Below, piece after piece: positions 1,410 to 17,280 of a stretch of DNA of 64,000 bases. The stretch is from contig OY970173.1 of the NCBI GenBank assembly GCA_963707635.1, positions 1,632,001 through 1,696,000 of the forward strand, read 5' to 3'. Position numbers and translations under genes: made by a program. The notes beneath the pieces were generated by a model. That model saw nothing but the letters and a program-made list of their open reading frames with translations, was not told the DNA's origin and made no database searches. Every line of letters begins with the position of its first letter. The first letter of the stretch is position 1. Source of the DNA: Candidatus Latescibacterota bacterium (GTDB taxonomy: Bacteria > Krumholzibacteriota > Krumholzibacteriia > WVZY01 > JAKEHA01).

Positions 1410-2024
1410 ATGCGAAACCGGGCGTGGCTTCTGCCTTGCGTCGCCGTGATCGTGGCCGTGTGCGCATCGACGGCGGGCGCCACCATGACCATCACCGAGA
1501 CCTACACGGTCGATCCAGGCTGGGAAGCCGGTGGATACTGGGAATTCACGGTGACCAACCACACCGGCGCGGACGTCTACATGGTCGCGGTCGGAAACTC
1601 CCTCGCGGACTTCGTGGTGGTGAGGTATCCCGATTTGGTCGGTGTCTGGGATCCGAACCGCATAGATGCATACGATTGGAACGTCAACGAGTTCACGTTT
1701 CGACCGATCGCGTGGACGGCGCCGGATCTCTCGACGTTCCCGACCTCGGTGTACTTCCCGGGCGCCACGCAGATTCTCATGTACTACGTTCTCGGCTCCA
1801 ACGCGCCGCTGGCGGATGGCGCGACGATCAGCGGGTTCATCTTCAATTACCCGTACGGTCTCGCCTCGTCGGGCGGTCCGCTCGCGCCGTTCGCCGTGGG
1901 GGCGCCTTTCCTGGCGTTCAATCGAGACGGCGAACTGGTCGCGCAAGGGGTCACGAATGGGGCGCCGTTGGCGACTGACCATCGAACCTGGGGCGCGATC
2001 AAGGCGCTGTACCGCCAAAGGTAG
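1410..2024 (+). CDS. Secreted protein with C-terminal TWGxIKALYR motif
   Basis: AAGGAG RBS, signal peptide MRNRAWLL...AGA, ends PLATDHRTWGAIKALYRQR. Confidence 0.8.
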   Translation: MRNRAWLLPCVAVIVAVCASTAGATMTITETYTVDPGWEAGGYWEFTVTNHTGADVYMVAVGNSLADFVVVRYPDLVGVWDPNRIDAYDWNVNEFTFRPIAWTAPDLSTFPTSVYFPGATQILMYYVLGSNAPLADGATISGFIFNYPYGLASSGGPLAPFAVGAPFLAFNRDGELVAQGVTNGAPLATDHRTWGAIKALYRQR

Positions 2025-2030
2025 GCCCCC

Positions 2031-2930
2031 ATGTTTCGTCGGTGGTTCACGCGCGGGTGCGCGCTGCTGATCGCGCCTCTCCTCTCCGTCCCGGCATTCG
2101 GAAGTTCGTTCTACTCATTCGCGTCAAGCAACGAAGGCTGGCAGGTCGTCGACTTTCCATTCTTGACGCACAATCCAACGCCCACTACCGCCGCCCTGCC
2201 GTTCGACGGCGCGTTCGGCAATCCTGCGGGTAGCGTGCGCGTGGGGGATGTCTTCGGGGAGACCGGGATCACGGCGCCTGCCGCTCACCTGGGTGATCAG
2301 GCGGCGATCTACGGCGATACGCTGCGCTACGACATCCTGATTCGGTACACCGACAACCTCGCTTACCCGGCGGTGGTGCTCAACGGCGGGACCATGTCCA
2401 TCTACTACGAGACGCCCTCGCCGGCGCTGGACGTGTGGGAATCGCGCGCGATTCCGCTCTCGGAAGCCGGTTGGAAGGTCAGCAACACCGCCGCCGTCGC
2501 GACACAGACCGATTTCATGAACGTCCTCTCGAATCTCACCGGTATCTACATCGCGACCGAATGGCGCACCGGACCCGACGATACCAACGTCGACAACATC
2601 TTCTTGCCGGGCGGACCGACCGGGGTCGTGGGGGCCACTCCATCCGCCCGCGGCGTGGTGGTGCGGCCCGCGTTTCCGAATCCGTTCGGCGGGGCTACCG
2701 AGATCGCGTTCACGCTCGATCATCCCGGACTCGTAACCGTCGCGGTATTCGATGTGCAGGGCCGGTTGGTGCGAACCCTCGCGGCAGAGCGCTTCGTTAC
2801 CGACCGCGCGACCGTGGCCTGGGACGGGAAGAGCGACGGCGGAGCCGACGTTCCGTCGGGGACCTACTTCGCGCGCGTCGTGACGGCGGCCGGAGGCGTC
2901 GCCGCTGAGAAGGTCGTTCGAGTCAGATAG
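2031..2930 (+). CDS. Secreted laminin-B(IV)-like domain protein with FlgD/T9SS-like CTD
   Basis: Signal peptide; APAAHLGDQ..IYGDTLRYD and FMNVLSNLTGIYI resemble laminin B; PTGV linker, then FPNPF...WDG...PSGTYF. Confidence 0.7.
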   Translation: MFRRWFTRGCALLIAPLLSVPAFGSSFYSFASSNEGWQVVDFPFLTHNPTPTTAALPFDGAFGNPAGSVRVGDVFGETGITAPAAHLGDQAAIYGDTLRYDILIRYTDNLAYPAVVLNGGTMSIYYETPSPALDVWESRAIPLSEAGWKVSNTAAVATQTDFMNVLSNLTGIYIATEWRTGPDDTNVDNIFLPGGPTGVVGATPSARGVVVRPAFPNPFGGATEIAFTLDHPGLVTVAVFDVQGRLVRTLAAERFVTDRATVAWDGKSDGGADVPSGTYFARVVTAAGGVAAEKVVRVR

Positions 2931-2989
2931 CGCGCCCAGGCCGCCGGGCGCGAAACAGAATCACGTCGGCCGCACTGGAGGAAGCAGTC

Positions 2990-3265
2990 ATGGCTAGTAA
3001 GCGCCGAATGGGTGCGGAGGAAGCGAAGGCCATTGGTTCCGCGCTCGGGATCGACTGGGCAAAGGTCGATCTGGAGCAGTTCCGTCGCGGGCTCGAAGTC
3101 GAGCTCGAGCACGGCGCGCGAGACCCGGAGACCAATGTCACCAACGATGACCTCACCCTCACCGGGAAGATCGCCTGGGCGCATCTGAAGGAATTCCGCG
3201 ACTACTACACGCGGCTGGACCAGCTGGAGGCGGAAGCGGACGCCTACTGGTCTTCGCGCCGTTGA
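2990..3265 (+). CDS. Small conserved protein (DUF5661-like)
   Basis: GGAGG RBS; F..GL.VELEHG...NVT.DD...TGKIA.AHLKE..DYYTRL motif. Confidence 0.7.
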   Translation: MASKRRMGAEEAKAIGSALGIDWAKVDLEQFRRGLEVELEHGARDPETNVTNDDLTLTGKIAWAHLKEFRDYYTRLDQLEAEADAYWSSRR

Positions 3266-3282
3266 AGCGGACGGCAAGCGGG

Positions 3283-3330
3283 TCAGCCTTGCCGCAGTAG
3301 CAGCACCAGCATCGTCCCGGAGATCGCCAG
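3283..3330 (-). pseudogene. Probable C-terminal remnant of AspT/YidE-family transporter
   Basis: Minus strand reads LAISGTMLVLLLRQG-stop immediately outside the left edge of repeat copy 1. It resembles the last TM helix of AspT-family proteins. Confidence 0.45.
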
Positions 3331-3331
3331 C

Positions 3332-5526
3332 TTTCGCCGCTGTTCACTGCTGAGTAGTCACGGCATCCGCGCCAAGGTGATGCGCTTGACTTGGTTCTAA
3401 CGAAGCCCTACTCTCCATATTACCAAGTGGCATTCCCAGGTGCCCCCCGCTGGCAGCATCTGTTTCGATGCGCACTGGCCGCAAGTAGTGCACACCTTTC
3501 ATGGAGGCGCGTCTCATGCACCCGCGGCCGTCAGTCCTGCCCCTCACTCTCCTGATTCACATTGTTTGGGGATGTCTTGCATTATCGCCTGCGCACGCGA
3601 CGGTCCCGGTTCACGAATGGAGTCAACGCTTTGGCGAGACCGGCGAAGACGTAGCGTTCGGCGTGGCCACAGACGGAGCGGGCAACGTTGTCATTACCGG
3701 ACTGTTCCAGCAGGGGATTAGCTTTGGCGGCAGATTCCACGGCGCCAAGGGGACTTTCGACATATTCCTGGCCAAGTTTGACCCAAACGGTGCGTACCTG
3801 TGGAGTAAGACTTTCGGAATGACCCCTGGTGGGGGATACAACGGAATCCTTAATGCGAGGGGCGTAGCCGCGGATGGATTGGGTGGTATCGCCATGGCGG
3901 GGTATTTCCAAGGCACCATGAGTTTCGGCGGCGCCCCACTGACGGCAGTGGGCTCGGGCCTCTTTGTCGCCAAGTACGATGCCAGCGGCGTTCACGTGTG
4001 GAGTCGCGCATTGGGGGCTAATGGCCCCGAGGACAGCTTCGGGCTCGCTGCGGATGGATCGGGCAACACCATCATCACGGGGGCCTTTGCAGGCTCGATG
4101 GATTTCGGCGGTGGCCTCCTGACCAGCGTTGGGGGCAGCGAGATTGTCATTGCAAAGTATGATGCGAACGGCGCTCACCTGTGGAGCCGGCGTCTCGGCA
4201 GCTTGGGCAACGACTACGGCGTAGACGTCGCGGTCGACGGGGCGGGGGGCTTCGCCGTCACCGGTCTCTTTAGCGGTGCGGTGAACTTTGGTGGTGCGAC
4301 ACTGACCAGTGTCGGGGCCACTGATGTATTTCTCGTCAAGTACAATGCCGATGGTGTGCACCAGTGGAGCCGGCGCATGGGAGGGACAAACTTCGACGAC
4401 GTGGCGGGGGTTGCCGTAAACGCAGCGGGAGACGTCGCCATCCACGGTGAACTGTTCACCAGCGCGAATTACGGAGGACAGACGCTGACGAGCGTCGGGA
4501 GTACCGATGTCTACGTCGCGAAATACGACGCGGGCGGCCTGCACGTGTGGAGTCAGCGCTTCGGCGGCGTGGACATGGACCGCGCCCGCGCCGTCGCCAT
4601 GGACGGGTTGGGCGACGTGGTTATCAGCGGTTCATTTTCGGGAACGGGGGATCTTGGCGGTGAGCCGATCGTTGGGGGTGCCGCCGATATATACCTCGCC
4701 AGGTACGATGCCGCCGGCGTCCACAAGTGGAGTCGGGCGTTCGGCCACCCTGCCACTATTGACGAGGGCTACGGAATTGCCACGGACGCGCTCGGTGACG
4801 TTCTCCTCACCGGCGCATTCACCCAGACGATAGATTTCGGCGGTGGGGTTCTGACCACCGAGGGATGGGACGACATTTTCCTTGTCAAGTTCAGCGAAGA
4901 AAGTCCCGTCCCTGTCCTGTTTACACTTTTCACGGCCACGCCCCGCGGTGCCGTCGTGGAAATAGCTTGGGATGTGAGCAGTGACGAGGTCCTGGGCGAA
5001 GTAGCGCTCTATCGTCGCGAGGGAACCGCGACGGAGCCGATCCTCGTCGCAACCGGCAGTGCGCTCGCCGCGCACTCGTACCTGGACGCCACGGTCGAAG
5101 CGGGTCGGACGTATCATTATGAGCTCGTTATTCGGACCGCGGGCGGGGACGTGTTCCGCTCACCTGTGGCGACGGTAACGGTTCCGACGTTCATCACTAC
5201 TTGGAGCAGAACCAACCCAACCCGTTCAACCCAAGCACCACCGTCACGTACACGTTGAGCGAGCGCGCGTTCACGAGCATAAGCATCTACAACGCGGCGG
5301 GAGCTTTGGTTGCGCGACTGGATGAGGGCGAACATGAACGAGGCACGCATCGCGTGGAGTGGAACGGTCGCGATGCGGCGGGAAGGCCCGTGGCGAGCGG
5401 TGTCTACATCTACCGGCTCGAAGGCGCAGTAGGCGTAAACGCGAGGAAGATGTTGCTCCTCAAGTAACGTTCGCCCAGACCAGACGCCACCAGCTTCATC
5501 TTGCTTCTGCGAGAGCGTGGCGCGAC
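3332..5526 (+). repeat. Direct repeat copy 1 (~2.2 kb SBBP gene cassette)
   Basis: Begins TTTCGCCGCTGTTCACTG and ends GAGCGTGGCGCGAC, matching 6082-8268. Confidence 0.9.
3501..5467 (+). CDS. SBBP-repeat beta-propeller protein with FlgD/T9SS-like CTD (1-bp frameshift near 5200)
   Basis: Repeated D..GN.VITG.F...DFGG..LTS.G..D.F.AKYD..G...WS..FG units. Lacks one A relative to copy 2 (ACTAC-TTG versus ACTACATTG). Confidence 0.85.
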
Positions 5527-5940
5527 CGTCGCGGTGCCAAGCGTGGTGGAGCTGGTCAGCGCGCCGGATAACAACCCGGCCGCCGTCCCCCCGTCGAAGT
5601 TCATCACGCGCGCCAGCAACCACGTCGCCCCGATGCCGGTCGCGCACAGAATGATGGTCAGCACAATCTGCGGCACAGCGCTCGAGCCAAGGGCCTGAAA
5701 GAACTCGGGCCCGGTCCGAAACCCGATCGCGAACAGGAACAGCAGGAAGAAGACGGTCTGGAGCACGGGCGAGGCGTCGATACCGACCTGGCCGACCAGG
5801 AGACCCGCGAAGAGCGCCCCGAGCACCGAGCCGAGCTGAAAGCTCCGCACGCGGATGCGACCGAGGGCGTGGCCGAGCGCGAGAGCCACGAACAACGCCA
5901 GTTCCGGATTCTCGCGCAACGCGCCGGTGAACCAACTCAC
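5527..5940 (-). pseudogene. Truncated aspartate:alanine exchanger (AspT/YidE family), N-terminal ~138 aa
   Basis: GGAGG RBS and GTG start; ENPELALF..LALG..LG, FLLFLFAIGFRTGP.FF, AAGLLSGALTSS motifs. Homology stops at the repeat boundary. Confidence 0.75.
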
Positions 5941-6081
5941 TTCGCCACCTCCCGCGAGCAAGGAAGAAATCTCTCTACACCGTGTTGACCTTGGCCGGGG
6001 AAGCGTACCACTAGCAAGTGGAAAACAGAATCTGTCGTTGATGGTGAGGCCATTTTCGACTGCTCGCTTCGGCGTCACCCA

Positions 6082-8268
6082 TTTCGCCGCTGTTCACTGC
6101 TGAGTAGTCACGGCATCCGCGCCAAGGTGATGCGCTTGACTTGGTTCTAACGAAGCCCTACTCTCCATATTACCAAGTGGCATTCCCAGGTGCCCCCCGC
6201 TGGCAGCATCTGTTTCGATGCGCACTGGCCGCAAGTAGTGCACACCTTTCATGGAGGCGCGTCTCATGCACCCGCGGCCGTCAGTTCTGCCCCTCACTCT
6301 CCTGATTCACATCATTTGGGGATGTCTTGCATTGTCGCCTGCTCACGCGACCGTCCCGGTTCATGAATGGAGTCAACGCTTTGGCGAGACCGGCGAAGAC
6401 GCAGCGTTCGGCGTGGCCACAGACGGAGCGGGCAACGTTGTCATTACCGGAACGTTCCAGCAGGGGATTAGCTTCGGCGGCAGATTCCACGGCGCCAAGG
6501 GGACATTGGATATCTTCCTGGCCAAGTTTGACCCAAACGGTACGTATATGTGGAGCAAGAGTTTCGGGTACCCCCCCAGCGCTGGACTGAACGGCATCTG
6601 CAAAGGGGTGGCCGTAGCGGTGGATGGATCGGGTGGTGTCGCCATGGCGGGGTACTTCCAGGGAACGATCAATTTCGGCGGCGGGCCCCTGACCGCGATA
6701 GACCTGCAAGACGTCGTCGTTGCCAAGTTCGATGCCAACGGCGTTCACGTATGGAGTCGGGTCCTGCGGATTGGCGGCCCCGAGGACAGCTTTGGACTGG
6801 CCGCGGATGTAGCCGGGAACACGGTGATCACCACCGCGACCGGAGGGACGGTGGATTTCGGCGGTGGCCTCCTGACCAGTGGCATGGTCGTCGCCAAATA
6901 CGGTCCGAACGGCGCTCATCTGTGGAGTCGGAGCTTCGGCGGCGCGAGCGGCGGATTGGGCTGGGACGTGGCCGTCGATGGGTCGGGCGACATCGTTGTT
7001 GCCGGTAATTTCGCCGGTACGACGAACTTTGGAGGCGAGACGATGACCAGTGCCGGGTACACGGATGGTTTTCTCGCCAAGTACGATGCCGACGGGAACC
7101 ACCAGTGGAGCCGGCGCTTCGGGGGTTACGGGTACGACGGCGTGAAGGGGGTCGCCGTGGGTGCCGCGGGAGACATCGCCGTGCACGGTGAATTCAGCGC
7201 TATCGCGAATTTTGGTGGGCAAGACCTGACGAGCGCCGGGAACTTCGATGTCTACGTCGCGAAGTACGACGCGGGCGGGCTCCACCTGTGGAGTCATGGC
7301 TTCGGCCGCGTGACCAGGGAATTCGCCCGCTCCGTCGCCGTCGATGGATTGGGTGACGTGGTGATCAGTGGATCATTTGCGGGACCTGTGGATTTTGGGG
7401 GCGGGCCGATCGGCGCGGGTGTCGCCGACATCTACCTCGCCCGGTACGATGCCGCCGGCTTCCACAAGTGGAGTCGGGTCTTCGGCCATCCCGCCACCGC
7501 TGACGAAGGGTGGGGAGTTGCCGTGGACGCTCTCGGTGACGTTCTCCTCACCGGCTTATTCACCGAAACGATAGACTTCGGCGGCGGAGTTCTGACCACC
7601 GAGGGGCGGGACGACATTTTCCTCGTCAAGTTCAGCGAAGAGAGTCCCGTTCCGGTACTGTTCACGCGCTTCGCGGCCACGCCCCGCGGTGCCGCGGTGG
7701 AGATCGCGTGGGACGTAAGCAGCGATGAGGTGCTGGGTGAGGCCACGCTTTATCGTCGCGAGGGAGCCGCGACGGAGCCGATCCTCGTCGCAACCGGCAG
7801 TGCGCTCGCCGCGCACTCGTACCTGGACGCCACGGTCGAAGCGGGTCGGACGTATCATTATGAGCTCGTTATTCGGACCGCGGGCGGGGACGTGTTCCGC
7901 TCACCTGTGGCGACGGTAACGGTTCCGACGTTCATCACTACATTGGAGCAGAACCAACCCAACCCGTTCAACCCAAGCACCACCGTCACGTACACGTTGA
8001 GCGAGCGCGCGTTCACGAGCATAAGCATCTACAACGCGGCGGGAGCTTTGGTTGCGCGACTGGATGAGGGCGAACATGAACGAGGCACGCATCGCGTGGA
8101 GTGGAACGGTCGCGATGCGGCGGGAAGGCCCGTGGCGAGCGGTGTCTACATCTACCGGCTCGAAGGCGCAGTAGGCGTAAACGCGAGGAAGATGTTGCTC
8201 CTCAAGTAACGTTCGCCCAGACCAGACGCCACCAGCTTCATCTTGCTTCTGCGAGAGCGTGGCGCGAC
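6082..8268 (+). repeat. Direct repeat copy 2
   Basis: Same ends as 3332-5526. Confidence 0.9.
6251..8209 (+). CDS. SBBP-repeat beta-propeller protein with FlgD/T9SS-like CTD
   Basis: Intact 652-aa paralog: signal peptide, propeller repeats, SPVPVLF linker, Ig/FN3-like domain, QNQPNPFNP...RKMLLLK. Confidence 0.88.
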   Translation: MEARLMHPRPSVLPLTLLIHIIWGCLALSPAHATVPVHEWSQRFGETGEDAAFGVATDGAGNVVITGTFQQGISFGGRFHGAKGTLDIFLAKFDPNGTYMWSKSFGYPPSAGLNGICKGVAVAVDGSGGVAMAGYFQGTINFGGGPLTAIDLQDVVVAKFDANGVHVWSRVLRIGGPEDSFGLAADVAGNTVITTATGGTVDFGGGLLTSGMVVAKYGPNGAHLWSRSFGGASGGLGWDVAVDGSGDIVVAGNFAGTTNFGGETMTSAGYTDGFLAKYDADGNHQWSRRFGGYGYDGVKGVAVGAAGDIAVHGEFSAIANFGGQDLTSAGNFDVYVAKYDAGGLHLWSHGFGRVTREFARSVAVDGLGDVVISGSFAGPVDFGGGPIGAGVADIYLARYDAAGFHKWSRVFGHPATADEGWGVAVDALGDVLLTGLFTETIDFGGGVLTTEGRDDIFLVKFSEESPVPVLFTRFAATPRGAAVEIAWDVSSDEVLGEATLYRREGAATEPILVATGSALAAHSYLDATVEAGRTYHYELVIRTAGGDVFRSPVATVTVPTFITTLEQNQPNPFNPSTTVTYTLSERAFTSISIYNAAGALVARLDEGEHERGTHRVEWNGRDAAGRPVASGVYIYRLEGAVGVNARKMLLLK

Positions 8269-8297
8269 GTGCCTTCCAGGCACCGTCTCGTCATTTC

Positions 8298-10613
8298 ATG
8301 AGTGAAACTATCTCTCCTGTCCATGCTGCCTCCCACACCTCGCGACGCATCACCGTCTGGTTGGTGGCGCTGCTCGCACTCTCCAGCGGGATCCTGAACC
8401 TGTATTCGGTGGTCCGGCCGATTTCTCCGGCCCGCGTCGCCGCCATCGAGAGTCTCTTCCCCGGGGGGTTTGTCCACCTGTCCCGCTTCGTCACCCTCCT
8501 GGCGGGGGTGGCGCTCATCGTGGTATCGGCGAACATTCTCAAGCGCAAGCGGCGCGCGTTTCACACCATGCTCATTCTGCTGACGGTGTCGGCTGTGTTC
8601 CATCTGGCGAAAGGGCTCGACTACCGGGAGGCGGTCATTTCATTCGTGAGTCTGCTCGTGCTGCTGCCGGCACGCCGCCATTTCACGGTTCGCAGCGGGA
8701 GGCCCGGGCTCAAGCGCACGATCGTCGGCGTCGCCTTTGTCGTGGTCGTGGTGGCGGTCTATGGAACGCTGGGGTTCTGGTTCTTCGACCGGCGGGAGTT
8801 CGGGATCGAGTTCACCATCGTCGATTCGGTGCGACGGACGTTCGAGTTTTTGCTCTTCTGGGGTTCCCCCGACATCGTGGCGCGAACGCGCCTGGCGCAC
8901 TGGTTCATCCAGTCGCTGTACGTGTTGAGCATCACCGTCATTCTGTACGCGATGGTGGAGCTGTTTCGCCCCGCGCTCTACCGTTTGCGGGTGCTGCCGC
9001 GCGACCGCAGCGCGGCCGCCGCGCTGCTGCAACGATACGGCCGCTGTGCGCTGGACTACTTCGCGACCTGGCCGGACAAGTCGCTGTTCCTGACCCGGGC
9101 GAGGGACTGCTTCGTGGCCTATCGCGTCGACCGCAGCTTCGCGGTAGCGCTCGGGGATCCGATTGGACCGGACGATCGGATCGAAGCGGCGATCCGCGAG
9201 TTCGCGGCGTTCTGCGCGGAGTCCGGCTGGGTGCCGGTGTTTCACCAGGCCCTGCCCGAGTTCTGGCCGGTGTATCAGTCACTCGGATTTCGCCGGCTCA
9301 AGCTCGGAGACGAGGCCGTCGTCGATCTGACCACGTTCACCCTGGAGGGCCGGGAGCGGAAGGATCTTCGCCACAGCGTCAACAAGCTCGAGCGGGACGG
9401 AATTCGCCTCCAGTACTTCGAACCACCGGTTCCGGACCACGTGGTCGCGGAGGCCAGGCAGGTGTCGAACGAGTGGCTCCAACGCGGCCGCCGCGAGCGG
9501 CGCTTCACGCTCGGCCGCTTCGAGCGCGGGTATGTCCGCTCGACCACGCTCCTCGCCGCGTTCGATCGCGACGCCCGCATGCTGGCATTCGTGAACATCG
9601 TTCCATCGCCGAGAAAAGGGGAGGCCACGATCGATCTCATGCGCCAGCGCGCCGCCGTACCCAACGGCATCATGGACCATCTGTTCGTTCGGCTGTTCCA
9701 GGACGAGCGCGAACAGGGGTTTACGCGCTTCAACCTGGGGCTGGCCCCCATGTCGGGGTTCGAGCCCGACGAGATGGCGGGTGTGGAGGAGAAGATCATC
9801 CACTACTTCTTCCAGCGCATGAACTTCCTGTTCAACTACCACGGCCTGAGACAGTACAAGGCCAAGTTCGCCACGTCCTGGGAACCGCGCTACATGATCT
9901 ACCAGAACCCGGCGGACCTGCCGCGGATCGCGCTGGCCATCCGGCGCGTCACCGAAATCGACGACAACGAGGAACTGGATCCGGACGCCTTCGATCCCGA
10001 GCACCTGCCCATCACCGAGGTCCCGTCCGCGGGACGGGGACTGAATGCGCTGGCCGTCATCCTGTCCGGAGACGGCGGGTGGAACGTGACCGAGAAGACG
10101 CTGGGGGCGCGCCTGGCCGCCGCCGGTGTCCCGGTCGCAGGGCTGAACTGCCTGCGGTACTTCCGCAAGCGGCGCACTCCCGATTCCTCCGCCCACGATC
10201 TCGAACGGCTGCTGGACCACTACCTCCAGGAGTGGGGCAAGCGGGAGGTGGTGCTGATCGGCTATTCCCGGGGTGCCTGTGTGCTCCCGTTCATGGTCAG
10301 CCGGATGCGAGCCGATCTGCGCGATCGCGTTCGGGGGATCGTGCTCCTCGGGCCGGCGGACAAGATAGACTTCAAGTTCCACCTGACCGATTTCCTCACT
10401 AATGTCGAGTGGCCTACCGCTCTGCCAGTGCTTCCGGAAGTCGAAAAGCTCCGGGGGATGCCGATCACGTGCTTCTATGGGAGTCGCGAGCAGGATTGCC
10501 TCTGCCGCGACGTGCCCGATGGGCTCGTGACCTGCGTCGAGCGACCGGGAGGTCACCTCGTGTGGAAGGACGTCGAGCCGATCGTCTCGGTGATCCTAAA
10601 TGCCGTAACGTAG
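8298..10613 (+). CDS. Aminoacyl-phosphatidylglycerol synthase (MprF/DUF2156) fused to VirJ/AcvB-type hydrolase
   Basis: TM helices, then DK.LF, ALGDPIG, KLGDEA, IDLMR, NGIMD.LF, FNLGLAP, GL..YK.KF...WEPRY. C-terminal VILSGDGGW, GYSRG and GGH. Confidence 0.85.
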   Translation: MSETISPVHAASHTSRRITVWLVALLALSSGILNLYSVVRPISPARVAAIESLFPGGFVHLSRFVTLLAGVALIVVSANILKRKRRAFHTMLILLTVSAVFHLAKGLDYREAVISFVSLLVLLPARRHFTVRSGRPGLKRTIVGVAFVVVVVAVYGTLGFWFFDRREFGIEFTIVDSVRRTFEFLLFWGSPDIVARTRLAHWFIQSLYVLSITVILYAMVELFRPALYRLRVLPRDRSAAAALLQRYGRCALDYFATWPDKSLFLTRARDCFVAYRVDRSFAVALGDPIGPDDRIEAAIREFAAFCAESGWVPVFHQALPEFWPVYQSLGFRRLKLGDEAVVDLTTFTLEGRERKDLRHSVNKLERDGIRLQYFEPPVPDHVVAEARQVSNEWLQRGRRERRFTLGRFERGYVRSTTLLAAFDRDARMLAFVNIVPSPRKGEATIDLMRQRAAVPNGIMDHLFVRLFQDEREQGFTRFNLGLAPMSGFEPDEMAGVEEKIIHYFFQRMNFLFNYHGLRQYKAKFATSWEPRYMIYQNPADLPRIALAIRRVTEIDDNEELDPDAFDPEHLPITEVPSAGRGLNALAVILSGDGGWNVTEKTLGARLAAAGVPVAGLNCLRYFRKRRTPDSSAHDLERLLDHYLQEWGKREVVLIGYSRGACVLPFMVSRMRADLRDRVRGIVLLGPADKIDFKFHLTDFLTNVEWPTALPVLPEVEKLRGMPITCFYGSREQDCLCRDVPDGLVTCVERPGGHLVWKDVEPIVSVILNAVT

Positions 10614-10799
10614 GGGGGCGCCGCCACTTCCGACTATCTGGACCGATCTCTCCCCACTGTAATCTCCGTTACATTTTGGAGCCTGGACGTCGGCTTATGT
10701 TAGGCTGACCTCCCCCGCCACAGGGCGTCGTACAGTCCAACTCCAGGGCGTTGGGTCGTACGACGCGGGTAGTTCCTCTCACGTTCGGAAAATACCGTC

Positions 10800-12437
10800 A
10801 TGCGGTTCCGCCTCCCTCGTGGTCTAGCGGAGACTCTTGTCGTGCTGGCTCTCTCGGCGTGCTCGCATTCGACCGAGCCGTCTGCGCCGGCCTTGAGCCT
10901 CGCCAGCGCCAACTGCGTCACCGACTTTTCCTGCACGTACGGCCAGGAGTGCATCGATGGTTCCTGTGCGCCCATCGAGCCGTCGATCTACCCGTACATC
11001 CAGACGGCGTGCGCGATGTGGCGTCTGCCGCTCGACGGCGCCGAGTCAGCATGGCTGGCAACTCACTACGATCTCATGATCGGCGCCGTGCGACCCGACG
11101 CAATGCGCCCGTTCAACTCCCACATGCGCTTCTTCGAGTACACGCTCACGCGGTACCATGCGTTCAACACCGGGCCGCTGCAGGCCAATCCCTGGGCCAT
11201 CGCCCACGGCTACGACCCCGAGGATTTCTACCTGCACTATCGTGAAGACGTCTACGTCCCCACCTGGGAAGGGAAGACCGTGGCGCCGGGGTTTCCGGCG
11301 GGCATGGTGCCGGGTTGGAACCCGGGCGGAGGCGGCAACCCCGCATCGGCCACACTGCGTTCCCAGTCTCGCGTCGTCTCCTGGTATCGCGGCGAACCCG
11401 TGCCGTGGTATCTGGCGAATGTCGCGCACCCCGGGTTTCGCCAGTTCCTGGCGGAGCGCACGAAGATGCTCATCAATGGCACGTTCTACTCCGGCAGGCC
11501 GTTTGTGGGCGGGCCCATCGACGGAATCGTCTGCGACGAGTCCATCTATTACGCGATCTACGGGGAAGGGCAGATCAACCGGTCGGCCGAGTACTTCGGG
11601 ATCCCCCTCACGGAAAACCACCCCTACGCGATCGCGGTCGAGGAACTGTATCCATACTTATCGCAGTCGCTGTTCAACGCGGTCGGAACCACGGTGGATG
11701 TCATGCCCAACTACGGGCACGTCCTCTTTCTCAATTACGCCAACCGGTCCGCTGTGAACGTCCAGGCCGCGACGCCGTGGATCTGGGGCGAGGTGTGGGT
11801 GACGTTCACCGGCTACCCGACGCCGACCAACGGAAGCAGCCGCTGCATCACCTACGAAAAGGACTATCTCAACGCCGTGCGCAAGATCGTGGAGCAAACG
11901 CGGGCGCGCGGGCGGCGTGTGCTCGGCGCGCGTGACATCGCGAACGGCACGGCGGGGACCGCTCGCGGCAAGATCTTTACGCTGGCGCTCTACTACCTGG
12001 TGCACAACCGGATGACGTACTACATGTACGAGACGGCGTCGGGGCACGCGCTCCCGGGACACGTCAGCACCTGGGCGTGGAACCCGGCGGTGGAATTCGA
12101 CGTCGGCCAGCCGATCTTCATCCCGGCGGGAGCGGTGGATTTCGAAGGAAAGGCTTCCACCACCGAGCACTGGGTGTTCGCCACCGGCCCCGATCCCTAC
12201 AAGCCCACCTCGACCTACCGCGTACTGGCGCGCCGTTTCACTCACGCGCTCGTGCTCGTGAAGATGCTCCCCGAGGGCTCGGTTGACGACAGCCGCAGCC
12301 TGACGGTTCACCCCCTGGGCGGAGTCTACCGGCCGCTGGGAGCGGACGGAACGGTCGGCGGGATGGTTACGGAAGCGCGTCTGCGCAACAACGAGGCGCT
12401 CATTCTGATCCCCGAGGCGGTCACCGGCATTCCGTAG
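10800..12437 (+). CDS. Lipoprotein, putative glycoside-hydrolase-like protein
   Basis: Lipobox LSAC and Cys-rich CVTDFSCTYGQECIDGSC. Features such as YLANV.HPGFRQF, DGIVCDE and RRF..ALVLV resemble GHL15-like proteins. Confidence 0.55.
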   Translation: MRFRLPRGLAETLVVLALSACSHSTEPSAPALSLASANCVTDFSCTYGQECIDGSCAPIEPSIYPYIQTACAMWRLPLDGAESAWLATHYDLMIGAVRPDAMRPFNSHMRFFEYTLTRYHAFNTGPLQANPWAIAHGYDPEDFYLHYREDVYVPTWEGKTVAPGFPAGMVPGWNPGGGGNPASATLRSQSRVVSWYRGEPVPWYLANVAHPGFRQFLAERTKMLINGTFYSGRPFVGGPIDGIVCDESIYYAIYGEGQINRSAEYFGIPLTENHPYAIAVEELYPYLSQSLFNAVGTTVDVMPNYGHVLFLNYANRSAVNVQAATPWIWGEVWVTFTGYPTPTNGSSRCITYEKDYLNAVRKIVEQTRARGRRVLGARDIANGTAGTARGKIFTLALYYLVHNRMTYYMYETASGHALPGHVSTWAWNPAVEFDVGQPIFIPAGAVDFEGKASTTEHWVFATGPDPYKPTSTYRVLARRFTHALVLVKMLPEGSVDDSRSLTVHPLGGVYRPLGADGTVGGMVTEARLRNNEALILIPEAVTGIP

Positions 12438-12535
12438 CCTCTTGCTCGCGGCCTCGCATCTAATCGCACGCCCCAAAACACGACGACCACCCTCGCGAAC
12501 GAGGATGGTCGTTGTGGAATAGCAATTACTACGAG

Positions 12536-13150
12536 CTACCGATACAGCGCCTTGATCTCTCCCCACGTGGTCTGGTCGGTTGCCGTCGGCGCCGGCAGGA
12601 GGAATCCACGAATCTCCCCGCCGGGAAATCCGACGCCGGCCGGACCCGTGTGGATATTGAGGTAGGCCTTTCCATCCGCAATGGCCTGGAAGAGGTCTGC
12701 CTCCGCCTGGGTGGTGTTCCCGCCGTGGGCGGTGACGTAGGCCGGGTTGTAGCTGCCGGCCAGCGTCATGTCCAAGGTGACGTCGTACGTCGCGGCCTGT
12801 ATGCCGAGAGGAAACCCGGCGAACGTCGGTGTCGTCGTGGCCACCCCGGCCGTTCCCGTTCCCGCGACCGCGGTCGCGGCATGGATGTGGGACGCGGTCG
12901 TGGTGCCGATCAGGCCGCTGAACGAGACGTGCAGCTCCAGCGTGTGCGCCGCTGCATCGATGTCCACCGTAGCGGTGCCCGTGGCCGGAGACGCGTTCGG
13001 CGGCGACTCAGCCGGCCCGCTCAGGGCTACCACGTAGTGAACCGGGACGGCGTTCGCCGTTGAGATCGCCCCGCCCCCGACTGCCAGAACCAGAACGGCA
13101 AGCGCAAAAAACGCGCGGGGAGCAAACTGTCGCGTTAAATACGTGTGCAT
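12536..13150 (-). CDS. CHRD-domain secreted protein with TWG tail
   Basis: LSGPAESPPNASPATG, SHIH, GKAYLNIHT..FPGGEIRG motifs; ends PTATDQTTWGEIKALYR. Confidence 0.88.
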   Translation of the reverse strand: MHTYLTRQFAPRAFFALAVLVLAVGGGAISTANAVPVHYVVALSGPAESPPNASPATGTATVDIDAAAHTLELHVSFSGLIGTTTASHIHAATAVAGTGTAGVATTTPTFAGFPLGIQAATYDVTLDMTLAGSYNPAYVTAHGGNTTQAEADLFQAIADGKAYLNIHTGPAGVGFPGGEIRGFLLPAPTATDQTTWGEIKALYR

Positions 13151-13440
13151 AAGGTGCCTCTTTCGGTTGGTGACACTGTGAATGCACCCTCGAACGGCTC
13201 GCCAGCTGCACAGTATATCACAAGCAATTGCTTGGGGGAAGGGTCGAATGGAGTGGACGACGAAGTAGCTTCCGGCCAATCACTTGGGTTGACTCCAAAT
13301 GTGGCCTGGCATACAGTGGCTCGGCTGGCTGAAAAGGTCTTACCTACTTTTCCCGTACAGACTCGACGTTTGAGACACGGATGTCCGGCGTAGTCCGTAA
13401 ATCTCCGTTTCGAATTTCCTCTATTGGAAAGGCATCTCGT

Positions 13441-14142
13441 ATGAATCGAAATGTGATATCGCGTTCACTCCGCATCTCGTCCCTGGTTGGACTCGTCCTC
13501 GCGCTCTCTGTCGCCTTCGTTCCGGCGTTCGCCGAGACGATCGTGCTCGACTCGGGCGCCGGGGTCGCGCTCCTTTCACCGGATCCCAACTGGAACTACC
13601 TCGCCGGCCCGCCCGTTACCCCACTTTCCGCGTCGCCGTTTACGGCTGCGGATTTCTTGGCGGCGTTGACGGGTCCGTCGGCAGTCGTGGTGCCGCCCTA
13701 CGGGGGTGCCTGGCTTCCGTCCTTGCAGTGCGATCCCCTGGCACAGTGGATCTCGGTCGATGCCCACTCCGGACCGGCGTCGACGTTGTTTGGGCGCAGG
13801 TTCGACGTGAAGACGTGCTGCATCGTCAGAGCCACGCTCACCTTCTGCTGGGCGGCCGACGACTACCTGGGTGACAACGCGGCCGGTGGGCCCAACCCTT
13901 CGGGCGTGTACCTGAACCAGGCCCCGCTGCCCATCGACGGCGGAAACTACGCGACCGAGTTCAGCGTTACCGTCGACGTGACGTCGTTGGTCCACTGCGG
14001 AGCGAACGAACTGCACGTGTACGACCGCGACGGCGCGGCGGTGGTCAGCGGCGCAATGTTCAGCGCGACACTCGAAATCACGGGCTGCCCGCTTTCGACC
14101 GAGAGCGCGACGTGGTCGAAGATCAAGGCGTTGTATCGTTAG
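13441..14142 (+). CDS. Secreted beta-sandwich protein with TWG-type tail
   Basis: Signal peptide ending AFA; AADD...VYLN, G.NEL.V motifs; ends PLSTESATWSKIKALYR. Confidence 0.8.
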   Translation: MNRNVISRSLRISSLVGLVLALSVAFVPAFAETIVLDSGAGVALLSPDPNWNYLAGPPVTPLSASPFTAADFLAALTGPSAVVVPPYGGAWLPSLQCDPLAQWISVDAHSGPASTLFGRRFDVKTCCIVRATLTFCWAADDYLGDNAAGGPNPSGVYLNQAPLPIDGGNYATEFSVTVDVTSLVHCGANELHVYDRDGAAVVSGAMFSATLEITGCPLSTESATWSKIKALYR

Positions 14143-14167
14143 TTTTTCCGCACCCTGCGGATACGAG

Positions 14168-14201
14168 AGGGGCCGCCTCGCACGAGGCGGCCCTTTTCTT
14201 T
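14168..14201 (+). terminator. Rho-independent terminator
   Basis: GGGCCGCCTCG-CA-CGAGGCGGCCC followed by TTTTCTTT. Confidence 0.85.
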
Positions 14202-14485
14202 CTCCACGCCCGGCGGCGAATACAATCTTCCCCGTCTTCTCTTAGGTTCGATGGTGACGGATACCGCCGCGGTGTGCTATCATGCCCGCACCATCCAAAT
14301 CCAACGCGCTCCCACCACGAAGCCATCGCATCACGCGTTCAACGGGAGTGTTTCCGAGTAGTCTGGTTCGTTTGGTCTGGACGGTGGCCGCAAGGGGAGG
14401 GTGTGGGGCTGGTTTTTGTGGTCACCTCGCGCCTGCGGTATTGTGTGAGTCCATTTCCTGTATCCGTTCTAAGGAGGATTCCATT

Positions 14486-15190
14486 ATGCGCAAACTGCTC
14501 GTTGTGTTCCTCATGTTCGTCGTGGTCCTGGTCCCGGTGCTGGCTTCGGCCGTCCCGGTGCCCGGCACCTACTATTCGGCCTTCCGCGGGGGTGCGGTGC
14601 TGAACGGCCGGGCGTCGGTTGCGCGCCAGGGCGTCAATTCGGGCGACCCCAAGATCTTCAACGGCCAGTCGTGGAACGGCGTGGCGCTGGGGACGCAGTG
14701 GGAGATCCAGTGCGGCGTGGAGGCGGTCTCCACACCGCCGGACTACTCGCTCTACAACCCGATCACCGGCACTGGCTTCATCACCTACCACCAGACGTTC
14801 ACGGGTGGGACGTTCACGCTCTACCCGGACTTCGCGGTGGGTTGGGGCTCCGGCACCGGCACATTGAACACGACTCAGGCCACGTCGCAGGTGTACCTGT
14901 TCAACTTCACGCCGGTATCGTCGAGCTTCACGGTGTTGACCTCGGGCACGTTCCCGGGCACCACCTGCCGGCTCGACTTCGCGTTCTCCAACGGTTTCGG
15001 TGTCGGGGAGACGCCTTACCTCTCCAAGCCGGCCGACTATCCGACGTTCCTGGCGGCCAACTGCTCGCCGGCGGATGCCGCGCATCAGTTCGGCGTATGG
15101 GCCGACGCGAACGACATCGTGGTCCAGATCAGCTGCCCGGTTCCGGCGGAAGCGTCGACCTGGGGCGCCATCAAGGCAATGTACCGGTAG
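14486..15190 (+). CDS. Secreted protein with TWG tail
   Basis: AAGGAGG RBS, signal peptide MRKLLVVFL...ASA, ends PVPAEASTWGAIKAMYR. Confidence 0.82.
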   Translation: MRKLLVVFLMFVVVLVPVLASAVPVPGTYYSAFRGGAVLNGRASVARQGVNSGDPKIFNGQSWNGVALGTQWEIQCGVEAVSTPPDYSLYNPITGTGFITYHQTFTGGTFTLYPDFAVGWGSGTGTLNTTQATSQVYLFNFTPVSSSFTVLTSGTFPGTTCRLDFAFSNGFGVGETPYLSKPADYPTFLAANCSPADAAHQFGVWADANDIVVQISCPVPAEASTWGAIKAMYR

Positions 15191-15284: not shown

Positions 15285-17280
15285 TCACTTCAGCAGTACC
15301 ATCTTCCGGGTGCGCGTCTCGCCACCGCTCTCGAGCCGGTAGAAGTAAACACCGCTCGCCAGCCGGCGGCCGGCATCGTCGGTTCCGTCCCACTCGACGC
15401 GTTGCACGGAACCGGCCGGGAACTCGCGCCTCACCAGCGTGCGGATCAGGGTCCCATCCGGCGAGTATACCCGCAGTTGGGTAAGGCCACCGTCCCCGAC
15501 GCGGAAGGCGATCGACGTCCGCGGATTAAACGGGTTGGGGATGTTCTGCTCGAGCTCGAGCCGGGGCGGCGCGCCGTCGGAAACCCCGGTAACCAGGTTC
15601 CCGTTGTGAACCAGCGCGCATGGATCTCCTTCGTTGAATAGAATCTTACTGATGGTGAGCGTCGTGTTCGTGGCCGCCGTGCCCTGGAACAGCACCTTGA
15701 TCAGGGGCAGGGAGCCGGTGAGCGGAGTCGAACCGGCGTGCACGATCACGACTTTCCCGGGAATGTTGGTGTTGAACACAGGCGTCCCCCACGACGCCGA
15801 TGCGGTCCCGCTGGTCGAGACCCCCGTGACGAATACCTGAGCCGCGTTGAAGGTGAGGGTCAGCTCGTAGCCGTAAATTCCCATCCCGGTCACGCTGCGA
15901 TCGGGCTGGATCGGGACCGGCGTGGGAAACGTGGGGAAGACGCTCTGTGCCGGCGCATTGACGTACAGTTTGCAGATGCTGATGGTGTCGGTGGTGTCCG
16001 TGCGCCCCGCGGCGTCGGTCGCGTAGACTCGCGTGGTGCCGGCGGCGGTGGCCGTGATCCTCCCCGTCGCGTTGATCGTGGCGACGCCGGAGTTGGTCAC
16101 TCCCCACACCACCGGCGGCGTGGTCGTCCCCCCGATGGTGAATTGCAGCTGGTCCCCGACGACGATGGTCGAGGTGTTGGGGGAGACGTTGATGCTGGAC
16201 GGCACCGTGATGGAAACACTTCCGTTGACGTTGATCGACGGGTAGACCTCGTTGAAGACCGCGTTGACCGGCGCGATCCCCGTCGTCGTGCTCGAGCCGG
16301 TCGGGTCGATCAGGAACTTCAGGTACGTCAGGACCCCCGGCCCGCCGAGGCTGTTCGAACCGGCCAGCGCGACGCTCATGACCCCCGAGCCCACCGACGC
16401 GGCGGGAGTGGCCCAGCCGGCGGTGGCCGCGACGGTTCCGGTCTGGGATACGCCAAGCGCAGTCAGGTAACCCTCCGTGTACGTGACTTCGAACTCGGCC
16501 GACTTGATCGCGTACGGAACCGGGTCGGTGATGGTCACGGGGACGAGCACGATGTTGCCGGGGCCCCCGGACGCGGTGCCCACGGTGAGCCGCAAGGCCC
16601 GCACGTCGATTATCCCGTTGGTCACATCGCTGACCCCGTTGAAATCGGTCGCCGTCGCCGTCACCGAGCCGGGGGCGACGCCGGTGAGGGTCGAGGTTCC
16701 GCCGAAGCTGGCAATGGCATTGTTGGACGACTGGTACGTGTACGGCGCCGTCCCGCCCGACGTGGAGAAGTTGAGCGTTCCGCCCACCAAGATCTCGCCG
16801 CTGTTGGGCGAAACAGCGACGACCGGGAGGGCCGTGATCGTGAGCTGGCCGTTGAGAAGGGTGGTGGTCGGCGTGCCTTCGTTGAAGACGCCCTCGGTGA
16901 ACGTAAGCGTCACGATTCCAGAACCCGGCCCCAGGACGAACGTGAGGTTGATGAGGTTTCCGGCTCCCGCGAGCGCGGTCGAACCGGCCGCGGCGATCTC
17001 GACCCGTCCCGGGGTGGCGTTGACGGTGACAGGGCCCCAGGGATTCGTCATCGTGCCCGCGACCGGCGCGCCGGTGCAGGTCGCATACGCGCGAAGTCCA
17101 CGTCACCGCCAATTCGTAGGAATACACGCCCAGGCCGGTGAGGTCCGTGGTCGAAATGCCGACGGTGACCGTGTTGCCGACCGTCCCTGCGCCGTTGCCG
17201 ATATCGAGCGTGACCGCACCCGCCGGGTCGACCCCGGCCAGCGCAAGTGCTGCGCTCAAAGCAAGTATCGCGTTCCGCAT
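15285..17280 (-). CDS. Scaffoldin-like protein: 3 cohesin-like + 2 Big_2 Ig domains + FlgD/T9SS-like CTD (frameshift near 17091)
   Basis: Signal peptide MRNAILAL.... Three modules of type V.V.I..D....G.YSYE..VT[WYF]...L....F.....FNE, separated by VSPN....IVG..L.F Big_2 modules. Two ORFs join across an indel. Confidence 0.75.

Follow-up and report, generated by a model that had tools for sequence, protein, structure and literature searches.

A short C-terminal tail on unrelated exported proteins of Krumholzibacteriota and allied phyla: a candidate sorting signal and a candidate PorU-like processing peptidase

To our knowledge, bacterial C-terminal sorting signals either include a membrane helix (LPXTG, PEP-CTERM, MYXO-CTERM) or are a folded beta-domain (the T9SS CTD). 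According to PMC11969387, the shortest known T9SS CTDs span 40-55 residues that comprise three beta-strands and the motifs B, D and E, and short CTDs are known from Prevotella intermedia. The T9SS peptidase PorU cleaves flexible linkers at the motif X/(GSA)(VLI) and prefers G, S or A at +1 (PMC4560394, PMC11969387); its site in HBP35 was mapped to P-T/A-T-E (PMC4560394).

We analyzed a window of 64,000 nucleotides from a Candidatus Latescibacterota genome assigned to the Krumholzibacteriota (assembly GCA_963707635.1). Four of its genes end in the same kind of 17-residue tail, and they are listed here with nearby genes that carry a FlgD-type T9SS CTD.

1410..2024, + strand: tail gene 1 (204 aa), signal peptide, predicted beta-sandwich body, tail plus two residues
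1965..2015, + strand: 17-residue tail of gene 1 (tail HMM 35.2 bits)
2031..2930, + strand: neighbor with a FlgD-type T9SS type A CTD (TIGR04183 35.5 bits, cut-off 23)
6251..8209, + strand: beta-propeller protein with a FlgD-type CTD (TIGR04183 27.3 bits; PF13860)
12536..13150, - strand: tail gene 2 (204 aa), signal peptide, CHRD domain (Pfam PF07452, E 7e-19), tail
12539..12589, - strand: 17-residue tail of gene 2 (tail HMM 35.2 bits)
13441..14142, + strand: tail gene 3 (233 aa), signal peptide, unannotated body
14089..14139, + strand: 17-residue tail of gene 3, W-S variant (tail HMM 27.1 bits)
14486..15190, + strand: tail gene 4 (234 aa), signal peptide, unannotated body
15137..15187, + strand: 17-residue tail of gene 4 (tail HMM 35.8 bits)
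15285..17051, - strand: FlgD-type CTD gene facing tail gene 4 (home-built CTD HMM 112 bits)

The sequence-only reading had described these four open reading frames and their 17-residue ends correctly, including the two extra residues of gene 1. All four have a signal-peptide-like start and no transmembrane helix, as it had noted, by the home-made heuristics used here for both gene and signal-peptide calls. Their bodies, which it had called dissimilar, fall into four different BLAST clusters, and profile-profile probability is ≤1% for each of the six pairs; common ancestry of the four bodies is rejected on these grounds. The tail is kept in 21 of 21 members of the gene 1 family and, among the matches listed, in 24 of 30 proteins of the gene 3 family, while the gene 4 body is common to four tail paralogues elsewhere in the genome. 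An AF2 model of the gene 1 protein (pLDDT 76, tail portion <50) had no Foldseek match at E≤0.001 and thus no clear fold relative. The CTD gene at 2031..2930 starts 6 bases 3' of tail gene 1.

The recurrence of the tail in this genome is not due to chance. A genome-wide search with a tail HMM, itself trained on 42 of the 43 matches, found 43 matches of at least 22 bits (about 1.6% of genes, 43/2651), each 0-4 residues before the stop codon; below this threshold are an internal copy (21.5 bits) and a probable frameshift (18.4 bits), and the next best match reaches 10.8 bits. The C-terminal position was tested independently among 1.84 billion representatives, where the last motif lies within 10 residues of the end in 149 of the 150 best matches and at 11 in the remaining one. 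A further count, with 130 of 130 tails in terminal position, is not an independent test, because the DNA search pattern ended in a stop-like codon. A signal-peptide-like start was detected in 36 of the 43 tail ORFs, and in 33 of 35 called tail genes compared with 610 of 2515 other genes, all by heuristic. Tail proteins are small (median ~200 aa vs 583 aa for CTD genes), and 29 of the 43 tail genes lie within 3 kb of another tail or CTD gene vs 10 for random genes.

The fixed spacing of the initial consensus was borne out, but residue choice is broader than four copies had implied, approximately [PTA]-[VLT]-[APS]-[TV]-E-x-x-[TS]-W-G-x-[VI]-K-x-L-Y-R. All 80 aligned tails have the same W, K and Y, but these rows were chosen by a pattern that contains those residues, and F replaces W or Y in tails of other families. 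Over their final 35 residues, tail proteins reach a 17-residue hydropathy of at most 1.59, and the heuristic calls no transmembrane helix. The amphipathic moment peaks at 110 degrees, and in an AF2 model of one cohesin-like tail protein the tail core is a 10-residue helix (residues 149-158); the core is predicted to be a helix on a flexible linker, at low confidence (pLDDT 59-69 in this model, <50 for the tail of gene 1). Scans of Pfam and NCBIfam gave no model matching the tail at E≤1, and a PDB sequence search gave none at E≤10, in agreement with the initial view that the tail is uncharacterised. Literature searches, which did not reach most subscription papers, listed nothing relevant on the tail or on type IX secretion in these phyla, and only unrelated papers on Latescibacteria with cohesin or dockerin.

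On the same protein bodies, the tail replaces a FlgD-type T9SS domain in this genome and a PEP-CTERM-like signal in other bacteria. One tail gene (G000:1065923) shares a domain, at 37-41% identity, with its neighbor 1066653, which has two copies of the domain and a FlgD CTD, and the bodies of four cohesin-like tail proteins are found again in CTD protein 1324692. None of the 43 tail genes has both tail and CTD. Four homologues of gene 3 (P0027-P0030, 37-45% identity) have instead a PEP-CTERM-like end composed of a motif, a hydrophobic stretch and arginines, and P0027 narrowly passes TIGR03382. These two kinds of swap, the signal-peptide enrichment and the 65 body clusters among 197 tail-protein bodies point to a modular C-terminal sorting or anchoring signal, as first proposed. 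Of the three outcomes named beforehand as refuting this proposal (no enrichment at the C-termini of signal-peptide proteins, homologous bodies, a motif of a characterised family), none was seen.

The tail also occupies the C-terminal place of the FlgD CTD, behind a similar linker. A tail-linker profile scores FlgD-CTD linkers at 3.74 vs 2.66 ± 0.25 for shuffles (0 of 1000 shuffles reach 3.74), and the gene 2 linker, P-T-A-T-D, resembles the mapped HBP35 site (PMC4560394). The earlier suggestion of a possible cleavage site shared with the CTD is supported in part, by the resemblance of the linkers; proline at the predicted +1 position of many tails (10 of the 43 in this genome and 73 of 130 from elsewhere, 83/173 in total) speaks against it.

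Counted across phyla as the sequence-only reading had proposed, the tail occurs in 119 of 121 genomes of the host's phylum, in Eisenbacteria and in one further small phylum, with at least 2547 tail-protein clusters at 50% identity. Because SprA (121/121) and the tail are both nearly universal in the host's phylum, profiling within it cannot separate candidate partners. The two genomes with no tail match both have U2, a PorU-like peptidase described below, and may carry divergent tails. In profiling for a co-distributed protease, also proposed initially, a U2-like match is present in 39 of 41 genomes of the class (one of the two misses was later recovered), in 37 of 40 tail-bearing genomes, and in 10 of 12 genomes of a further phylum in which all 12 have the tail. 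No U2 was recovered from G125, G154 or G197, genomes that bear tails or were reached via tail matches. In the T9SS-bearing phylum of genome G121, the tail is found in none of the 30 other genomes and canonical PorU in 31 of 31; the sole U2-model match per genome is the canonical PorU gene, and U2 proper is found in 0 of 31. This negative control is one phylum and therefore one contrast, as related genomes are not independent.

The sequence-only reading saw no processing enzyme, which holds for the window and not for the genome, where a strong candidate, U2, lies ~1.03 Mb beyond it. Canonical T9SS parts are also encoded, namely SprA (491 bits) and PorU (529 bits, beside PorV), with several additional PorV/PorQ-family barrels. 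U2 is a second PorU-like C25 peptidase, distinct from the canonical PorU gene, that combines a C25 propeptide and a His/Cys-bearing C25 domain with a PorU-like/FlgD-like T9SS-type CTD. The C25 His and Cys are invariant in 33 of 33 aligned U2 proteins, 6 of 39 candidates having been dropped by a length/motif filter before alignment. Among solved structures, PorU 6za2 is the closest to U2 (E 2.6e-37) and ranks before the gingipains; U2 scores 172-188 against NF033707 (cut-off 420) and 50-98 against NF052324 (cut-off 450). In a tree drawn with midpoint rooting, a branch separates 42 U2 rows from 12 canonical PorU and 3 gingipain-like rows, with a support of 98 that is SH-like because the tree was built with FastTree. 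The U2 gene is frameshifted in this assembly and intact in relatives.

U2 is downstream of tail genes, mostly cohesin-like ones, in 32 of 49 loci; on the same strand, they are found upstream of U2 in 17 of 20 loci of the class, in 9 of 20 taken from other genomes with tails, and in 6 of a further 9. In the 17 loci with no tail gene upstream, a contig end cuts 6. Besides tail genes, the neighbors of U2 are murQ-like, anmK, spoIID and yceG genes, and not porV. The genes beside U2 are predicted to encode a cohesin fold: the model of one such tail protein (pLDDT 92) has cohesins as its top Foldseek matches (E 1.2e-6, TM ~0.55). Cohesin-like bodies make up 66 of the 197 tail bodies, so that about two thirds are not cohesin-like. 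U2 could serve only the proteins of its own cluster. The first gene of the cluster is dockerin-like, with matches below cut-off to PF00404 (E 0.008-0.03 in 2 of 10) and, in the one protein run, to NF041540 (E 4e-4). Complex prediction with U2 (766 residues, C25 and Ig region) and a 30-residue tail peptide scored 0.00 in two runs with no control folded, and speaks neither for nor against binding.

Taken from sequence comparison, the reading to which we give an even chance is that the tail is the short sorting signal of a second type IX-like branch, in which U2 would cut the linker and join the cargo to a surface acceptor. Tail proteins would be exported by Sec and would pass the outer membrane through SprA, either unaided or with a CTD-bearing partner as carrier, for example U2; U2 itself, like PorU, would presumably stay at the surface through a CTD that is not cut off. 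Cleavage would fall at approximately P-[TVL]/[APS]-[TV]-E, within the linker that precedes the W-G-x-I-K-x-L-Y helix, and the cut cargo would be transferred by transpeptidation to LPS, glycan or protein. Once anchored, cohesin-fold proteins might bind the dockerin-like product of the cluster's first gene. A fuller version is more tentative and falls clearly short of an even chance: an undescribed second branch in Krumholzibacteriota, Eisenbacteria and allied phyla, with a type IX-like translocon perhaps lacking the Gld motor, in which a helical tag that has neither beta-domain nor membrane anchor would direct dozens of small proteins to a dedicated PorU paralogue; this enzyme would bond them covalently to the surface or to one another and build a cohesin-dockerin coat.

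The tail may never be cut, acting instead as a docking helix that binds the membrane or a conserved envelope receptor such as a U2 scaffold, a PorV-family barrel or a surface lattice. Some proteins carry tandem tails (four copies in P0053, two in P0079) and one lipoprotein family has the tail on some members only, both of which fit binding better than a single cut; proline at +1, the amphipathic moment and the extra PorV/PorQ-family barrels point the same way. We nevertheless consider docking doubtful, if a serious contender, since U2 keeps its catalytic pair throughout and the tail linker resembles CTD cleavage linkers beyond composition. The near-invariant W, G, K and Y would, within this explanation, favor a specific receptor over plain membrane binding. 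The universal SprA of the phylum, the CTD-like position and linker, and the proximity of tail genes to tail and CTD genes would equally suit a minimal T9SS signal that the canonical PorV shuttle reads and canonical PorU cuts, leaving U2 with another job. That is unlikely: at 17 residues and with a predicted helix, the tail differs from the shortest CTDs described in PMC11969387, and a phylum with canonical PorU in every genome lacks the tail.

Two further explanations are less probable again. As a degenerate PEP-CTERM-type signal, the tail would be processed by the genome's exosortase (G000:2034773, PF09721 200 bits), in keeping with the PEP-CTERM-like ends of the gene 3 homologues. This is very improbable given that the tail lacks a transmembrane helix and matches no CTERM model at E≤1, that the exosortase sits among glycosylation-type genes, and that one gene with a PEP-like transmembrane tail is its likely substrate. 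Periplasmic PDZ proteases recognize C-terminal peptides, and the tail could tag proteins that never reach the surface, marking them for retention, folding or turnover by a tail-specific protease or chaperone; searches for GldM and GldN in this genome, and for GldM in 21 genomes of the phylum of G128, had 0 matches, with controls likewise empty. We rate such a role as improbable, although less so than the exosortase, because the same bodies swap the tail with two surface-sorting signals, the cluster partner U2 bears a T9SS-type CTD, and cohesin-fold bodies are typical of surface scaffolds.

If the sorting branch with U2 exists, a soluble tag of 17 residues served by a PorU paralogue of its own would add a third sorting-signal architecture, and type IX-like export outside the Bacteroidota would handle two signal classes. 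Thousands of hypothetical proteins from abundant uncultured phyla would be marked as envelope-sorted. The tail offers a direct test of what PorU-type enzymes need for recognition and is possibly a compact ligation tag.

The closest known system is T9SS type A (TIGR04183/PF18962; here FlgD-like PF13860). Like its CTD, the tail is C-terminal, follows a similar linker, occurs with a Sec-type signal peptide on unrelated cargo and is interchangeable with the CTD on the same body, and the host encodes SprA, PorV and PorU. However, the CTD is a beta structure of 40-100 residues with motifs B, D and E, whereas the tail is shorter, is predicted to be helical, matches neither TIGR04183 nor PF18962 at E≤1, and is linked to smaller cargo and a separate PorU paralogue. 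U2 shares the C25 propeptide, His/Cys and CTD with PorU (NF033707; PDB 6za2) but falls below the curated cut-off, in a separate tree group and with neighbors other than porV. PEP-CTERM and MYXO-CTERM (TIGR02595, TIGR03382) are likewise short modular tails on many unrelated exported proteins, replace the tail on gene 3 homologues and end in a basic residue. They differ in having a transmembrane helix and a basic cluster, and their exosortase or myxosortase is intramembrane, while the candidate enzyme U2 is a soluble C25 peptidase. Finally, the predicted cohesin fold with a C-terminal signal, and the dockerin-like and transpeptidase-like genes beside cohesin-like genes in the U2 cluster, recall cohesin-dockerin scaffolds with sortase-anchored cohesins (Ruminococcus flavefaciens ScaE, PDB 2zf9); here the dockerin matches are below cut-off and LPXTG is absent, and the host is a diderm with a C25 enzyme.

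The 17-residue C-terminal tail (core W-G-x-I-K-x-L-Y) is real, widespread and uncatalogued, and would be of the kind that combines a C-terminal signal with a sortase, here with a named candidate enzyme, U2. The four tail genes of the sequence-only reading were confirmed as ORFs in the window, with their coordinates and quoted ends. The window belongs to a one-contig genome of 3.2 Mb (G000, 96% complete).

Tail genes of the window and candidate tail-cutting enzyme
1410-2024, + strand: tail gene 1, ORF ending in the motif
12536-13150, - strand: tail gene 2, ORF ending in the motif, with a CHRD domain
13441-14142, + strand: tail gene 3, ORF ending in the motif
14486-15190, + strand: tail gene 4, ORF ending in the motif
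G000:2725491 to about 2729600: U2, a PorU-like C25 peptidase, directly downstream of three tail genes

The CHRD domain is the sole known domain among the four genes, and the bodies preceding the tails are as dissimilar as had been claimed (no relation by BLAST, at most 1% probability in profile comparison). Relatives of gene 3 (59% identity) and of gene 1 (51%) bear the name Candidatus Krumholzibacteria in their source records, which makes Krumholzibacteriota the likely phylum of the genome. The window also encodes a near-duplicate pair of beta-propeller genes with FlgD-type T9SS C-terminal domains (FlgD CTD; 3501-5467, split by a frameshift near 5200, and 6251-8209), with a short membrane-protein ORF fragment between them (5410-6078, - strand), and a predicted lipoprotein of 545 aa (10800-12437, + strand), convergent with the CHRD tail gene, that lacks both the tail and a CTD. 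A 1510-aa ORF (17320-22147, - strand) is likely frameshifted, because its FlgD CTD (17320-18063) lies in another frame; taken with the frameshift in U2 and the similar appearance of several tail genes, it points to assembly indel errors.

Genome-wide, the tail HMM detects 43 copies scoring at least 22 bits, each with 0-4 residues between it and a stop codon, against a background that starts at 10.8 bits. Two extra copies fall below 22 bits, one internal and one a probable frameshift. A signal-peptide-like start is found in 36 of the 43 tail ORFs, and several of the remaining 7 look frameshifted or truncated. The expected co-occurrence with signal peptides holds among called genes, the heuristic being positive for 33 of 35 tail genes versus 76 of the 101 genes with a FlgD CTD and 610 of the remaining 2515. 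Complete tail proteins (n=36) are 144-395 aa long. Clustering sorts the 43 bodies into 26 groups; a pool of 197 bodies drawn from all sources gives 65. No entry in Pfam, NCBIfam or PDB covers the tail, in agreement with its description as an uncharacterised motif.

At E<=0.001 the tail profile has matches in 2547 representatives; among the best 150 of these, 149 carry the motif within 10 residues of the end. A pattern scan of GTDB genomes yielded at least 125 tail loci (signal-peptide-like start in 67 of 77 complete ORFs). Of the 121 genomes sampled from the host's phylum, 119 have the tail. It also occurs in at least 14 of 21 genomes from the phylum that includes an Eisenbacteria-titled one (a lower bound at the strict E<=1e-8) and in all 12 genomes of a small phylum, two of whose records are titled Gemmatimonadota. 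By depositors' titles, the 80 titles among the matches listed are mainly Eisenbacteria, Krumholzibacteriota, Latescibacterota and unnamed bacteria; single Zixiibacteriota-titled genomes and two Fibrobacteraceae-titled ones are also among the matches listed.

U2 is frameshifted in this assembly and measures about 1400 aa in relatives, and its catalytic His and Cys are kept in 33 of 33 sequences. It scores below the cut-offs of the PorU model and NF052324, has PorU 6za2 as its nearest solved structure and forms its own group in the tree (SH-like support 98). Across lineages U2 tracks the tail, with a U2-like match in 39 of 41 genomes of the host's class, 37 of 40 tail-bearing genomes and 10 of 12 in the small phylum. 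In the phylum of the Zixiibacteriota-titled genome, canonical PorU occurs in 31 of 31 genomes, a separate U2 in 0 of 31 and the tail in 0 of 30 other genomes, the absences of U2 and tail amounting to one phylum-level contrast.

In 17 of the 20 class loci fetched, out of 39 genomes with a U2 match, U2 is immediately preceded by tail genes. These loci usually open with a gene for a secreted protein of about 200 aa whose end resembles a dockerin (dockerin matches below cut-off), followed by the tail genes. In other tail-bearing genomes, 9 of 20 loci show tail genes upstream within a span of about 12 kb (6 negative, 5 truncated by a contig end); a further set of 9 U2 loci has them at 6. In the one cluster protein modelled, a flexible linker joins a beta-sandwich that matches cohesins to a helix at the core of the tail. 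In most class genomes the cluster is located between yceG (mltG) and murQ-like, anmK and spoIID genes (L013, L150-L169). Another genome, G156, has two U2 copies (L189, L204), one directly after a dockerin-like gene with no tail gene between.

The genome encodes SprA (491 bits), a canonical PorU (529 bits) adjoining PorV, a PorZ-like gene and further PorV/PorQ-family barrels; a search without positive control gave no match for GldM or GldN. Behind a CTD gene, one run (G000:C1:230895-242087) comprises a PorV/PorQ-family barrel with a fused FlgD-like domain, a large TPR protein, ExbB/TolQ, two ExbD/TolR-like and TonB-like genes, and could be an energiser of a type IX-like system without detected GldM/GldN. 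Three tandem gingipain-like C25 genes (G000:C1:1488590-1503980, 1565-1722 aa, one frameshifted) have ordinary FlgD CTDs and differ from both PorU and U2. A third sorting system, serving about one substrate, consists of an exosortase located amid glycosylation-type genes (G000:C1:2034734-2035579) and a single gene with a PEP-like motif, TM stretch and arginines (3019684-3020307).

The tail behaves as a swappable signal. One domain carries the tail in 1065923 and occurs in two copies with a FlgD CTD in the adjoining gene 1066653, and the CTD protein 1324692 repeats cohesin-like bodies found on tail proteins; both signals are together on none of the 43 tail genes. Among 30 listed homologues of gene 3, 24 end in the tail, 4 (P0027-P0030) in a PEP-CTERM-like motif followed by a hydrophobic stretch and arginines, and 2 otherwise; of the four, P0027 alone passes the curated cut-off, narrowly. 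P0001 and P0002 are tandem-domain homologues, one named Planctomycetota, and the C-terminal domain of P0001 is another one, unannotated and about 130 residues long, without Pfam or NCBIfam match, possibly a sorting domain as well. The proposal that tail and FlgD CTD share a linker stood as a resemblance beyond composition: a profile of tail residues 1-5 scores FlgD-CTD linkers at 3.74 against 2.66 +/- 0.25 in shuffles, and the regular expression matches 32 of 101 FlgD-CTD linkers versus a mean of 12.8. The gene 2 linker is close to the PorU site of HBP35 as mapped in PMC4560394. Against a shared cut, 83 of 173 tails have Pro at +1, while PorU prefers G, S or A.

Tail proteins would be exported by Sec, judging from their signal peptides, and the face formed by W, K, L and Y would serve for recognition of the tail. 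SprA would pass them across the outer membrane, either directly or by way of a CTD-bearing carrier, after which U2 would cleave within the linker and attach the resulting terminus to an acceptor at the surface. U2 itself probably resides at the cell surface, since the CTDs of PorU and PorZ stay uncleaved (PMC11285876) and its own CTD resembles that of the PorU encoded here. The founding substrates would be the cluster proteins with a cohesin fold; the tail would have spread later to other bodies, the window's four among them. We give this whole scheme an even chance; a targeting or anchoring role of some sort for the tail is very probable.

The main rival, which we consider possible but rather unlikely, is a docking helix that is not cleaved. 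It is favoured by a lipoprotein family with tandem copies, of which some members carry the tail and others do not (G000:C1:371617-374256), and by tandem tails in P0053 (four) and P0079. In the lipoprotein family, one G000 ORF combines an internal copy of the tail with a terminal one, where the corresponding genes of a relative are separate. Other readings fit less well: a minimal CTD read by canonical PorV/PorU is improbable, a periplasmic tag more doubtful still, and an exosortase signal very hard to credit.

Searches of the open-access literature turned up no paper describing the tail, nor any about type IX secretion in these phyla. The tail would work like a T9SS CTD or a PEP-CTERM signal, yet departs from the defining structure of both, as it has neither the beta-domain of 40 or more residues of the former (described in PMC11969387) nor the TM helix of the latter. 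U2, although not a member of NF033707, would in turn work like PorU.
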